Origin: a virus
Taxonomy: Duplodnaviria; Caudoviricetes
DNA length: 64,000 nt
Reading direction: 5' to 3' (one strand)
IMG/VR virus record: IMGVR_UViG_2822194890_000001
Location: 4,179-68,178 of that record
Within the stretch, counting starts at the first letter, position 1. Each line of letters opens with the position of its first letter. Position numbers and translations under genes: made by a program. Below are positions 22,352 through 33,883 of this stretch, piece after piece. Below the pieces are notes generated by a model, which saw only the letters and a list, made by a program, of their open reading frames with translations, was not told where the DNA came from and ran no database searches.

Positions 22352-22471
22352 AAAGAAAAGACACCCTAAGATGCCTTCCTCCGACTTGAACCACTTTAAT
22401 TTTAATAATATGTATTGGACGCCAATCCAAATATTATTTTACCATGTTAAGTAATGTTAGTCATTGAGAAA
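22352..22471 (-). repeat. Inter-cassette element copy 1 (extended -10 promoter, ~85-nt sRNA, terminator)
   Basis: Minus strand: TGGTAAAAT, TTGGATTGGCGTCCAA hairpin, GTGGTTCAAGTCGGAGG, AGGCA/GACACC terminator with T-tract; 2 mismatches to copy 8 over ~104 bp. Confidence 0.9.
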
Positions 22472-22545
22472 AAAGAAAAGCACTCTTTCGAGTACCTAGT
22501 TTATGCAGCAACAGTCATCATTAATGATGTTTTTTATTAATGAAT

Positions 22546-23316
22546 TTAACCAGCATTTTTATGTGGATCAGCACATTTGAGTGGATTTAATTTTGGAAAA
22601 TTAAGTTGGAAATTGCCAACGATAGATATATGATTGCAAGGATCTTTAATAGTACAAGGAGTTCCATTTGGCATTGTTACAGTGTCGTTTTTATGTTCAA
22701 TCTGACCTAATTTTGTCAGTTGTATTGTAGTACAATCTATAGGTGGCAAATTCTGTTGATCAATTTGTTGAGTAGTACATGAAATTGTACTGTTTACACA
22801 AACATTTCCTTGACAACATATATTAACTTTTGGTGAATCTGTTAAATTTATTGAACAGTCACTAGAAACATTAACAATTCCTCCACAAAGCATTGTAGAA
22901 TTAGGATTACTTGGATCAGGTATAACTTGAACTGATATATAATAAGGGATACACCCTACTACCTGTATCGAATTTACAGTAATATCAACGGGTCCACACT
23001 CTGATTCGCAACAATAAACTTTTGTTTGGGGTAGAATTTGTAAGCAACTAAGATCATATACGATTCTTAAAGTACTCCAGTCAATTACACTAATTGATGG
23101 TATTGTTAAATCACAACAGAACGCTATAGGATCATTCTTAGTTTCAGATAAAGTTTTAGGCAAATCAATTTTACATTCGTATTTTTCGTCAAACATAGGA
23201 TTATAACTACTATGTGGTTGAATTATAGTATTAGTTCCACAACAACTTCTATCTTCTTCGCACATGTTATCTTTATAAACATTCTTGTGCGTATTTTCCT
23301 CATAATAATTTGACAT
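22546..23316 (-). CDS. Cysteine-rich protein, possibly spore coat/exosporium associated
   Basis: Many Cys including CC pairs (SCCG, FCCD, YCCE, ICCQ); GGGAG RBS. Confidence 0.5.
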   Translation of the reverse strand: MSNYYEENTHKNVYKDNMCEEDRSCCGTNTIIQPHSSYNPMFDEKYECKIDLPKTLSETKNDPIAFCCDLTIPSISVIDWSTLRIVYDLSCLQILPQTKVYCCESECGPVDITVNSIQVVGCIPYYISVQVIPDPSNPNSTMLCGGIVNVSSDCSINLTDSPKVNICCQGNVCVNSTISCTTQQIDQQNLPPIDCTTIQLTKLGQIEHKNDTVTMPNGTPCTIKDPCNHISIVGNFQLNFPKLNPLKCADPHKNAG

Positions 23317-23547
23317 AACAACACACTCCCTTTTCTCTATACGTCAAGAGCATATTAATCAGTAATTATAAAAATGTAGTATTGTACTATTAATTTTGGG
23401 CTAATTTAATATGAAAAATAGGCAAATCAACCAGAAAAAGCCCACTGTTTAGTGGGTATAAAATGACATATAAGGAATGAGAGTGTTAATAATAATCATT
23501 TATAAGATTATGATAATAAATTGAAAAATGAGCCTGTTTAACAAAAT

Positions 23548-23650
23548 AAAGAAAAGACACCCAAAGGTGCCTTCCTCCGACTTGAACCACTTTAATTTTA
23601 ATTATATCTATCGGACTCCCACCCTAATATTATTTTATCATGTTAAAATG
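23548..23650 (-). repeat. Inter-cassette element copy 2 (5' hairpin diverged)
   Basis: AAAGAAAAGACACCCAAAGGTGCCTTCCTCCGACTTGAACCACTTTAATTTTAA conserved. Confidence 0.85.
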
Positions 23651-23837
23651 TTTTATCCATATAGGGGTATCATCATATCGCCATCAACCTAAGAGTACCT
23701 ACTACCTATTATTGTTATAAATATTATTCTGCCTAGATTAATAAGGAGAGATGGAAAAACACGCTAAGCAGAAAATACAATAAGCTGCCCATATGGACAG
23801 CTTATTTACATAATTCTTGTTATTGGAAGTAAAAACA

Positions 23838-24206
23838 TTAGGTTAATTTTTGTAAATGTGTTTCCTTAAAAGAATTATTATATTTTAAGCCATATCCTAA
23901 AATACGATCCATTCCTATATGTGCGGTCCAGATTAGTCCTAACATAATAGTAATATTGTTTGTGAATAGCATTCCTAATATGATGCACAAGATAGGTAAG
24001 ATATAAGAGTGAAATATATTGTATAAAGTTGCTCCTGTCCTGAGATTAACGATATAGCCTAGCGCAGAAATATCAGGAGCTAACAAAAGTATTAAAAACC
24101 ACATTAAGCTAAAATGATAGTGATAGAAATATATAAAAGTGCTTAAGAATAATACAAATAATCCCTCAATATTTAAAATAGTTTTAATCAATGTAATCCC
24201 TCGCAA
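23838..24206 (-). CDS. DUF4260-family membrane protein
   Basis: LLAPDISALGY, YNIFHSY, WTAHIGMDRILGYGLKY...THLQK motifs. Confidence 0.8.
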   Translation of the reverse strand: MRGITLIKTILNIEGLFVLFLSTFIYFYHYHFSLMWFLILLLAPDISALGYIVNLRTGATLYNIFHSYILPILCIILGMLFTNNITIMLGLIWTAHIGMDRILGYGLKYNNSFKETHLQKLT

Positions 24207-32098: not shown

Positions 32099-32140
32099 AG
32101 CTATAATTGAAATTTATATTAAATAATGTATGTACATTAT

Positions 32141-32296
32141 TCAAGATGCTAACCAATCGTAAAATGGAACTTTCCCAGTGTATTCATGCTCCGAAAATAT
32201 ACGAGTAACCATACTTCTGCCAATCTTGTCCTCTTGTAATTGCTTCTTTGTATTTTCTTTTGTTTAACGGAGATCTACTTCAATTTTAAAATCCAT
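32141..32296 (-). pseudogene. Short degraded ORF between the ATPase and TIR genes
   Basis: MDFKIEVDLR*TKENT...FYDWLAS*: internal stop in a 52-codon frame. Confidence 0.35.
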
Positions 32297-32310
32297 ATTT
32301 TGTTCTTTTG

Positions 32311-33570
32311 TTAATAAAGATTTGCCCATCGTAGATAAAATATAAAAAATGGATCTACGATATATAATGCATCATCTTTAAAATCGATAGCTGGTTCTCC
32401 AACTAGTTCATCTTTAGCGATTTTATCCATTTGAGTTAGTACTCTTGTGATTTCGGATCTCTGGGGAACAGATTTATTTTCTAGTAATTCTTGAAGCTTT
32501 TTTCTTATGTCGTCAGGTGTAATAGGCTTTGTATTGTCTAGTTCTGTTAGCGTAGCCATTACTGCTTCGTAGATGTCGCCTTGTCTACCATTTTTGAAGT
32601 ATCTTTCTTTTCTATCTTTGCTGGTTGGACCACTGACCAATTTTTCAAAAACAACGTTGGATGTAGATGTTTCTACTATTTCTTCAAAGAAATCTTCATA
32701 ACTGCTAGGAGGATTTAAGTTTTCCATGGTTTCTTTACTTTCGTCAAAATCATTTTCAAGGCATAAATAGAAACAAAATTCTTGCATCAAATGCGGGCTT
32801 CTAAAGCTTTGTTCCGTAAATTCTTTTACCATTTCTTCAGGGTAATTAATATTTAAAGCTTTGAACCCTTTTTTTGCTATTTCTGATAACTCTTCTGTAC
32901 CCCAAGGTGTAACTCTAATTTGACTTACTCTTCCATTCATTTCTTGTTCTACTTTAATGGAATCATATTCTCTATGAGGAACAGAAATTAAAATTACTTT
33001 TAAACCATCAGAAACTGCATTTTTTAGAGATCTAATTATATCTTTTTGGATTGTTTGATCTATATAATGAAAATCATCTATTAATAGAGGGATGTTATTT
33101 TTTAGTAGAAAATCTATACATTGTACCCTTGAATCATAATTATAGCTTTTTACAGTTTTGGTTCCTTTTTTTACTGCGCCATCATTGTTTACAGTCCCCT
33201 GAACTTTAGCTATTTTAATACTTAGTGTTCCAGATACCTTTCCACCAACTGTTGTTGTTTCGTCCTCAGATTCTTCTTGAGTAGCAGTTAAGGGGATACT
33301 TAATTTATCTACTATTATTCTCCACAAATCATTTTCTTCTTTTATATGAGCTCCCATTATCCAGATACTATCTGTGGGGGGAATTATTTTTTTGCAAAGA
33401 ACAGATTTTCCAGATTTTGTTGGACCAGTTATGGATATAATTTTTCCTTGTGCCTTTAAAAATTTTTGTAGTCTTGATTCAATTTTCAAATTATCTCTTG
33501 CATAATATGTTATATTTGGTGTGCCTCCAGCTGTAAAAACTTCTCCAATTTTTATTCCCATAATTTCCAC
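32311..33570 (-). CDS. P-loop (AAA-like) ATPase with C-terminal winged-helix-like region
   Basis: Walker A GPTKSGKS, Walker B LLIDDFHY, ends LYIVDPFFIFYLRW. Confidence 0.75.
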   Translation of the reverse strand: MEIMGIKIGEVFTAGGTPNITYYARDNLKIESRLQKFLKAQGKIISITGPTKSGKSVLCKKIIPPTDSIWIMGAHIKEENDLWRIIVDKLSIPLTATQEESEDETTTVGGKVSGTLSIKIAKVQGTVNNDGAVKKGTKTVKSYNYDSRVQCIDFLLKNNIPLLIDDFHYIDQTIQKDIIRSLKNAVSDGLKVILISVPHREYDSIKVEQEMNGRVSQIRVTPWGTEELSEIAKKGFKALNINYPEEMVKEFTEQSFRSPHLMQEFCFYLCLENDFDESKETMENLNPPSSYEDFFEEIVETSTSNVVFEKLVSGPTSKDRKERYFKNGRQGDIYEAVMATLTELDNTKPITPDDIRKKLQELLENKSVPQRSEITRVLTQMDKIAKDELVGEPAIDFKDDALYIVDPFFIFYLRWANLY

Positions 33571-33768
33571 CTTGTTATGTAAAATAATTTATCAATGTTA
33601 TTATAGCATTATCTGAGTATATAGTTTAATGATACTTATTAGCTTAAGGGGCATACTGTTAAACGAGAAATAAAATCTATAGAAAAAGCAATTACCAGGT
33701 ATATAGAAAGCGCCCAGTGGGTGTTTTTTTATTTTCATATGTATCTCTGTAAAAATTTATTCCTTACT

Positions 33769-33883
33769 AAAAAAGACACCCAAAGGTGCCTTCCGACTTG
33801 AACCACTTTAATTTTAATAATATGTATTGACGCCAATCCAAATATTATTTTACCATGTTAAGTTATTTTACACATTGGGAAAT
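33769..33883 (-). repeat. Inter-cassette element copy 9 (near full length)
   Basis: AAAAGACACCCAAAGGTGCCTTCCGACTTGAACCACTTTAATTTTAATAATATGTATTGACGCCAATCCAAATATTATTTTACCATGTTAAG. Confidence 0.9.

Follow-up and report, generated by a model that had tools for sequence, protein, structure and literature searches.

Promoter, short-RNA and terminator modules between the accessory genes of a Bacillus cereus-group phage-plasmid: probable insulators and sites of cargo exchange

Introduction

T4-type phages carry promoter-early stem-loop (PeSL) cassettes (Arbiol et al. 2010, PMC2839356; Comeau et al. 2014, PMC4122927), and excised mini-circles have been shown for these elements. In Bacillus, the conjugative plasmids of the pLS20 family contain the regulatory repeats EGeRS1 and EGeRS2; in one orientation EGeRS1 prevents read-through, and EGeRS2 contains a strong promoter and forms an operator-bearing promoter leader directly upstream of establishment operons (PMC8708921). 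The Bacillus cereus group harbors the interspersed repeats bcr1 to bcr18, of which bcr18 is found on plasmids only (PMC3446304, PMC6542083), and bcr repeats have been linked to TTTAT motifs (PMC6542083). The published bcr18 counts are 3 for B. anthracis, 4 for ATCC 10987 and 0 for both Al Hakam and IS5056. Here we describe a repeated element of about 125 bp, referred to as the module, which separates accessory genes in a stretch of 64,000 nucleotides (the window) representing bases 4179-68178 of the 68,178-bp IMG/VR virus record IMGVR_UViG_2822194890_000001. All coordinates are positions in the window, and the modules c1 to c9 are numbered by position.

The genome encodes tailed-phage functions, namely a large terminase (57318-58637), a portal protein and tail proteins, together with plasmid-type maintenance functions, namely ParA (19255-20142), an FtsK-like protein, a replisome organiser and a DnaC-like loader, and is therefore a B. 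cereus-group plasmid-prophage (phage-plasmid). Its nearest public matches are Bacillus phages, among them IEBH, 250 and 0105phi7-2, and several hundred Bacillus plasmids. The modules lie between the cargo genes, and gene content differs between relatives exactly there; a module is therefore a probable transcription stop and cassette swap point.

Results

Nine copies in three forms

A repeat search identified nine co-oriented copies on the minus strand between 22.3 and 33.9 kb, in the accessory region, and no further copies were found when the whole 68-kb genome was searched, so that all nine fall within one 11.5-kb region. The original prediction had placed nine copies in one orientation at these positions, and this was confirmed by the repeat search, by alignment and by chance expectation: a 24-nt core pattern gave 6 matches with 0.00 expected, and the promoter pattern TTCTCAAT-N17-RTGGTAAAAT with fixed spacing gave 5 with 0.49 expected. 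All nine had also been taken for promoter-small RNA-terminator elements. The nine sites are real, but the minus-strand alignment sorted them into three forms (six full modules, one 3' half and two terminator-only copies), and only the six full copies show that complete organisation. The copies are as follows.

c1, 22350..22472, minus strand: full module, preceded by a second type of terminator and facing the end of a plus-strand gene
c2, 23546..23668, minus strand: full module; its -10 is degenerate (ATGATAAAAT) and its 5' hairpin weakened
c3, 24511..24625, minus strand: full module, short-linker variant, 8 nt shorter and with an ACCAU/AUGGU hairpin of its own
c4, 26487..26601, minus strand: full module, short-linker variant, beginning about 25 nt past the stop codon of a 279-aa gene
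c5, 27559..27598, minus strand: terminator-only, ending the 190-aa membrane-protein gene
c6, 28243..28300, minus strand: 3' half (AAGAUGGUUCAAGUC and terminator), lacking promoter and 5' hairpin
c7, 29067..29110, minus strand: terminator-only with one additional stem base pair, ending the YjcZ gene
c8, 29339..29461, minus strand: full module, 96% identical to c1
c9, 33768..33883, minus strand: full module with a 3-nt deletion ahead of the terminator, beginning about 20 nt past the stop codon of the FRG gene

The orientation of c1 relative to the convergent plus-strand gene means that it has no same-strand gene downstream, and the short distance between c4 and the 279-aa gene implies that c4 also terminates the transcript of that gene. 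The copies are 80-96% identical to one another. The 96% identity between c1 and c8 extends across 122 nt, and the two differ, as predicted, at 2 sites in the transcribed part. The variants differ in length by 8 nt and hence share no reading frame, in agreement with the earlier remark that the frame is not conserved between copies.

Anatomy of the module

Copies of the module were gathered from 166 loci in public viral and genomic contigs (labelled L013, L058 and so on, each gathered for carrying the module). Across these copies the unit has sharp boundaries and is conserved from TaTTTCTCAAT to GGTGTCTTTTCTTTAT. The full form, read on the minus strand, has a TTTCTCAAT box, separated by 17 variable bases from an extended -10 (RTGGTAAAAT), and then a 5' hairpin, a linker and a terminator. 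The box and the extended -10, which is predicted to be of sigma-A type, are conserved and the 17-base spacer between them is variable, which suggests constraint on the promoter elements and not simply copying in recent times. Transcription is predicted to start 6-8 nt past the -10, at the base of a small hairpin (UUGGAU-loop-GUCCAA) with a variable loop of UGGC, GGGA or CGUC. The hairpin is followed by an A/U-rich linker and by GGUUCAAGUCGGAGG; both are at least 90% conserved, including in 23 copies outside the search-pattern selection. Thus an apparently unpaired stretch of 40 nt is at least 90% conserved in primary sequence, whereas the promoter spacer and the hairpin loops vary. This conserved unpaired part is the main hint of an RNA with a function of its own.

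The module ends in an intrinsic terminator (GGAAGGCACC / GGUGUCUUUUC and a U tract), which folds in every copy. Three conserved G-U pairs in its stem correspond to A-C mismatches on the opposite strand, and therefore the terminator can form in the minus-strand RNA only. In divergent copies (c7 and that of pXO1) an additional base pair has been gained on both sides of the stem. RNAalifold, applied to an alignment of 89 copies, supported the terminator fold alone. The region as a whole contains 26 terminator-like sites with 4.6 expected. An own promoter and terminator, the feature by which small RNA (sRNA) genes are recognised, bound a short non-coding unit here, as far as can be predicted.

Variation was also seen in the 5' part. 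In the pBc10987 copy and several others, a similar extended -10 is followed by another 5' part of greater length, and a third 5' part (TAGGATGTGTTTACACGTATAAC...) is recurrent ahead of the 3' module. We considered an "empty expression cassette", in which a gene would be inserted between the promoter with 5' hairpin and the 3' module. This was discarded, as no such insertion was present among 88 fuzzy matches to promoter and 5' hairpin: the 3' module came next in 83 at the threshold used and, when looked at by eye, in four of the other five; the last is no copy of the module.

Searches against known RNA families gave no candidates. With Rfam, nothing in the window reached the gathering score, the modules had no match at E <= 10, and the Bacillus-plasmid motif RF01691 matched neither the window nor pXO1. 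ARAGORN detected no tRNA or tmRNA in the window; the T-loop-like motif GGUUCAAGUC of the module is therefore not part of a tRNA-like gene. An exact-sequence search for the module motif in a collection of papers found none that contains it.

Distribution and array layout

By BLAST, the module was found at 1423 places in 519 plasmid records, 517 of them Bacillus, with a maximum of 14 copies per record. A pattern scan of one genome per species returned B. cereus-group contigs, a few chromosomes among them, and a handful of matches in other taxa, of which about 4 are estimated to arise by chance. The family is confined to the B. cereus group, where it occurs on plasmids, phage-plasmids and a few chromosomes. 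The 166 loci contain 158 full, 104 3'-half and 47 terminator-only copies.

The array layout seen in the window is general. Copies are co-oriented in 66 of the 69 multi-copy loci, and the 140 intervals between copies have a median length of 838 nt, about one gene each. Interval content is diverse (72 clusters among the 140 intervals), and the longest open reading frame (ORF) shares the orientation of the module in 51 of 71 cases. Full copies lie at a median of 54 nt past the previous stop codon and 258 nt before the next start; in the window, the terminator stands directly behind a gene in c4, c5, c7 and c9.

Some individual copies deserve mention. A single divergent copy each is present on the anthrax plasmid pXO1 (L093, 439-554) and on pBc10987 (L095, 15841-15929). 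A full module with 93% identity was found at 230572-230687 of CP079755.1, a plasmid record labelled Klebsiella grimontii; a mislabelled or mixed assembly is a more likely explanation than real transfer.

Gene content changes at the modules

A change of cargo exactly at the repeats had been set beforehand as the test of the cassette idea. For this purpose positions 21700 to 36000 of the window were compared with all gathered loci. Module intervals, 8.9% of the region by length, contained 140 (54%) of the 258 informative homology-block ends; with the ends grouped into distinct 10-nt bins, the figure was 40 of 107 (binomial p = 7.5e-16). Individual rearrangements agree with this. In L058 and L067, the sequence upstream of c8 is joined within one module to the sequence downstream of c7, and the YjcZ gene between them is gone; it sits elsewhere in the same loci, again bounded by a module. 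In L013, the lipoprotein gene is missing between fused equivalents of c5 and c4. In L079, the c5-c4 and c8-c6 blocks stand in reverse order and are separated by other cargo. The predicted coincidence was thus observed.

All pairs of major variant sites inside the module show four haplotypes, spread across its length, and this suggests that crossovers have taken place within it. Truncated copies have their 5' junctions at varying points in the linker. Together these observations point to homologous or illegitimate exchange with no fixed crossover site. Tyrosine recombinases (PF00589) were not matched anywhere in the 68-kb genome although the positive controls were, which extends to the whole genome the earlier statement that an integron integrase is lacking. 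Two other recombination proteins are encoded.

42577..43203, plus strand: Sak-like single-strand annealing protein
54721-55305: serine recombinase/invertase, the one in the genome, 21 kb away

The Sak-like protein is, we infer, a candidate catalyst of exchange between short repeats. The proposal of a cassette platform in which the repeats act as crossover points and insulators is thus consistent with the swaps at the repeats and with the predicted one-strand intrinsic terminators. "Integron-like", the term used for it, applies to the layout only; the exchange looks homologous.

Cargo genes and neighbouring shared elements

The genes between and beside the modules are listed below.

22546..23316, minus strand: CryBP1-like Cys-rich protein (Pfam)
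23838..24206, minus strand: DUF4260 protein (Pfam)
24860..25795, plus strand, opposite to the modules: collagen-repeat protein (Pfam)
26004..26273, minus strand: DUF4177 protein (Pfam)
26626..27465, minus strand: 279-aa putative lipoprotein
27614..28186, minus strand: 190-aa membrane protein
28482..28772, minus strand: LCI-fold peptide (Pfam)
29118..29228, minus strand: 36-aa protein, Gly/Cys-rich and then hydrophobic
29475..33738, minus strand: multi-gene interval between c8 and c9, including the following two
31016-32098: SpbK-like TIR protein (Pfam/PADLOC)
32311-33561: AAA protein of the candidate defence family PDC-S59 (Pfam/PADLOC)

The name "YjcZ family sporulation protein" for the gene at 29118..29228 is taken from the annotation of the corresponding stretch in related plasmids. 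Pfam and PADLOC bore out the cargo names of the original prediction and identified the CryBP1-like, DUF4260, collagen, DUF4177, LCI, SpbK-like TIR, PDC-S59, FRG/PDC-S15 and AbiD families. Defence genes are gathered around c8 and c9 (29475-36933) and comprise SpbK-like TIR, the candidate defence families PDC-S59 and PDC-S15 (the FRG protein), and AbiD. The gaps ahead of several cargo genes in the window contain promoter-like sequences and extra terminators.

Further shared elements accompany the modules, and two of them had been recognised before and were found again. The second-type terminator is this:

22478..22497, minus strand: GUACUC-GAAA-GAGUGC and U tract, with further copies at 24631-24650 and 35074-35093

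The shared promoter block was recovered at 24663-24737, 27495-27527 and 35525-35578. It belongs to a second shared block (24663-24737, 27495-27560, 35525-35578) which lies directly behind module terminators and occurs at many loci, among them L049, L055, L063 and L088. This block yields a terminator-then-promoter composite ahead of cargo genes and contains TTCGACA, which we take to resemble a Spo0A box. On the promoter side, c8 is adjoined by a conserved non-coding block of 150 bp (29465-29615) with its own terminator hairpin (AAAAAGTCCTAGCCCACCTAGGACTTTTT), which recurs beside modules in more than 11 other loci. A unit of 340 bp, 92% identical between its two copies (24290-24630 and 26268-26606), lies upstream of the unrelated DUF4260 and DUF4177 genes. 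It includes a module variant and a strong hairpin which pairs AAGGAGG with CCUCCUU and encloses a 12-codon ORF, VKVG[I/S]PPCPCYQ, with a good Shine-Dalgarno (SD) sequence; a cis-regulatory leader or a micro-peptide is possible.

The variable region has a fixed edge at 21700. The ORF-poor stretch next to it (20543-21700) is 82-95% conserved in about 40 related contigs, homology stops near 21700 in nearly all of them, and the stretch may be a plasmid origin. Just upstream of parA, at 20115-20540, there are at least 8 direct and inverted copies of a motif of the AAGTATAC(A/T)TTT(A/C)(C/T)ACTT type, which looks like a centromere or iteron cluster. In the phage backbone, two adjacent transposase-like ORFs at 9323-10677 are probably an insertion sequence.

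Discussion

Proposed function and alternatives

The family is, in our judgement, rather probably a portable promoter, short-RNA and terminator module with truncated terminator derivatives, which insulates cargo and supplies homology for cargo swaps. The full form would be a self-contained unit for an RNA of about 77-80 nt, and the 5'-truncated copies, reduced to the 3' half or to the terminator, would serve as terminator of the preceding gene. Judging from terminator anatomy, each copy would stop transcription in one direction, insulating the neighbouring cargo. Their 80-96% identity and common orientation give homologous recombination a place to act, and such co-oriented copies would let it delete, insert or reorder single cargo units, supposedly with host RecA or a phage Sak-type annealing protein as the enzyme. 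The full copies probably also make a multicopy small RNA whose conserved linker and motif may bind a partner.

Several observations weigh against this proposal or parts of it. The loci used in the breakpoint test were chosen for containing the module, which biases block ends toward it, and other recurrent junctions are found away from modules, near 21700, 24250, 26190 and 29610. The -35 region is poor, and the two-hexamer promoter scan, which is uninformative for extended -10 promoters, flagged only some copies. Conservation of the linker could be accounted for by recent spread or gene conversion instead of selection. In the 89 near-identical copies RNAalifold found zero compensatory pairs, because the copies are too alike. 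A middle hairpin ending in RUGG, plausible in single folds, was not supported, as it formed 4.5 pairs in 38 independent 3'-only copies compared with 4.9 after shuffling. Of the sampled words, 6% were present in the sole RNA run that was found, which consists of contigs assembled from a relative; these cover some cargo genes and run through c8 and are uninformative on starts, ends and strand. When the conserved motif was compared with the 140 translation starts of the window, the best energy was -21.5 kcal/mol against -20.1 +/- 1.6 kcal/mol for shuffled seeds, and no target stood out.

These results on the RNA bear equally on an alternative in which the main role is that of a trans-acting multicopy sRNA or RNA decoy, regulating genes of the host or of rival elements through the T-loop-like motif and an SD-like GGAGG, with exchange as a by-product of many identical genes. 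The unit is indeed self-contained in having its own predicted promoter and terminator, c1 has no same-strand gene to serve, and the 40-nt stretch is conserved where spacer and loops are not. Stable Bacillus RNAs carry a hairpin at the 5' end, and one is present at the predicted 5' end here. Against this stand the relative's contigs, which give no RNA ends, an alignment free of structural covariation, the absence of a phage target among the translation starts of the window, and half of the family members, which have no promoter and act as gene terminators only. We regard this alternative as doubtful. Promoter, short structured RNA, terminator and gene also follow each other in the classic order of an attenuator, and in some copies the next gene begins about 60-120 nt past the terminator; the module promoter might then drive the downstream cargo by regulated read-through. 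The gap to the next gene is usually long, however, and the upstream stop is closer (medians as given above), gaps in the window hold more terminators or promoter-like sequences of their own, c1 and many copies in relatives precede the terminator of a convergent gene, and no alternative anti-terminator pairing is evident in the folds. A cis-acting leader is consequently highly improbable in our view.

Two further alternatives concern the DNA. The co-oriented array with roughly one gene per interval and highly diverse cargo invites comparison with integron attC or res sites, and the serine recombinase/invertase could act on such a site. Yet this enzyme is encoded 21 kb off, a tyrosine recombinase is lacking in the whole genome, the junctions of truncated copies are scattered, the four-haplotype pairs do not centre on one core, and the family occurs on hundreds of unrelated replicons, so that a site for a site-specific recombinase can hardly be credited. 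The sharp boundaries, the end ...CTTTAT and the head-to-tail abutment of some copies with TTTAT in common would fit a small non-autonomous mobile element inserting at TTTAT, comparable to a MITE (miniature inverted-repeat transposable element) such as the B. cereus bcr repeats. Read from the consensus and with no dedicated repeat search run, the module ends do not form inverted repeats; 0 of 95 flank junctions were empty in a sample made up of module-carrying loci only; and the copy-number profile is unlike that of bcr18, with no other bcr family fitting. Such an origin seems very unlikely.

Returning to the insulating module that serves as a swap point, a bolder form of it can be envisaged, and to this we give little credence: the full modules would be abundant, multicopy sRNA genes borne by plasmids and phages which double as the recombination scaffold for defence and spore-surface cargo. 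The invariant single-stranded stretch, comprising the A/U-rich linker, the T-loop-like GGUUCAAGUC and the SD-like GGAGG, may then bind a partner, either a host factor, for instance the ribosome, an RNA chaperone or a tRNA-recognising enzyme, or the RNA of a defence system or rival element. If true, B. cereus-group mobile elements would possess a counterpart to the integron that is built on RNA genes.

Significance

If the favored reading is right, a single short sequence gives order to the pool of accessory genes in plasmids and phage-plasmids of the B. cereus group, a pool that spans anti-phage defence, spore-surface proteins and small secreted or membrane proteins. The module would explain how single genes move among otherwise unrelated replicons without integrases or transposases, and it would carry the PeSL idea beyond lytic T4-type phages, to the large plasmids and temperate phage-plasmids of Gram-positive bacteria, including the relict copy of pXO1. 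The module is also a practical marker, as searching for it locates cargo islands directly. The RNA of about 80 nt, should it prove real, is a widespread plasmid RNA, possibly an abundant one and so far in no catalogue, from a group to which pathogens and biopesticide strains belong.

Comparison with described systems

Multicopy sRNA families such as Listeria LhrC1-5 consist of several near-identical units, each with promoter and terminator. The module resembles these, and sRNAs embedded in 3' untranslated regions, in its near-identical small units and in that some copies share the terminator of the upstream gene; it differs in that its copies are dispersed among the cargo genes of mobile elements rather than placed at one chromosomal locus. 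An identity with XrrA or XrrB of pXO1 was rejected, as these map at 131 kb and 105 kb and the pXO1 copy of the module lies at 459-554.

Like bcr18, the module is a group-specific, plasmid-borne intergenic repeat, and bcr18 too is predicted to be a structured RNA and is transcribed. The two were nevertheless set apart indirectly, by copy-number profile from the published counts and not by consensus sequence: the module is present once on pXO1, once on pBc10987, twice on the Al Hakam plasmid and five times on an IS5056 plasmid. With the EGeRS elements it shares the placement of repeated non-coding sequences between accessory operons of Bacillus plasmids. EGeRS1, however, is 400-750 bp long, GC-rich, structured and devoid of a sigma-A promoter, and the EGeRS precede operons as leaders, whereas the module is about 125 bp long, AT-rich, located mainly behind genes and found in the B. 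cereus group. Membership in EGeRS1/2 was rejected on size, AT-richness and position.

Integrons have an IntI tyrosine recombinase beside the array and promoterless cassettes that a single Pc promoter expresses. They resemble the module arrays in their common orientation, in holding roughly one gene, unrelated to its neighbours, from repeat to repeat, and in the great diversity of the cargo. Here, in contrast, neither IntI nor another tyrosine recombinase is encoded, the repeats are conserved in sequence and not merely in fold, at least some cassettes appear to carry promoter-like sequences of their own, and the junctions are heterogeneous.

The comparison with PeSLs, already drawn in the original prediction, remains the best available analogy, with the reservation that the order of parts differs. 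In both systems, short conserved promoter and terminator motifs are concentrated in those accessory regions that vary; where close relatives differ by an insertion, deletion or replacement, the difference has these motifs at its limits, and homologous recombination between copies is proposed; and a stem-loop ends upstream transcription, a role suggested here by the hairpin and U tract of all nine copies. In PeSLs, the stem-loop overlaps or adjoins the promoter that drives the next ORF, and SD sequence and start codon are found at the 3' end of the motif. The module promoter lies about 80 nt upstream of its own terminator, forming a closed unit with the next start at the median distance of 258 nt. 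Moreover, the module carries the conserved 40-nt linker and motif, which PeSLs do not have, and its hosts are Gram-positive phage-plasmids and large plasmids. Hence, the module works like the PeSL cassettes but is not a member of that family, being distinguished by the order of its parts and by an extra conserved RNA segment.

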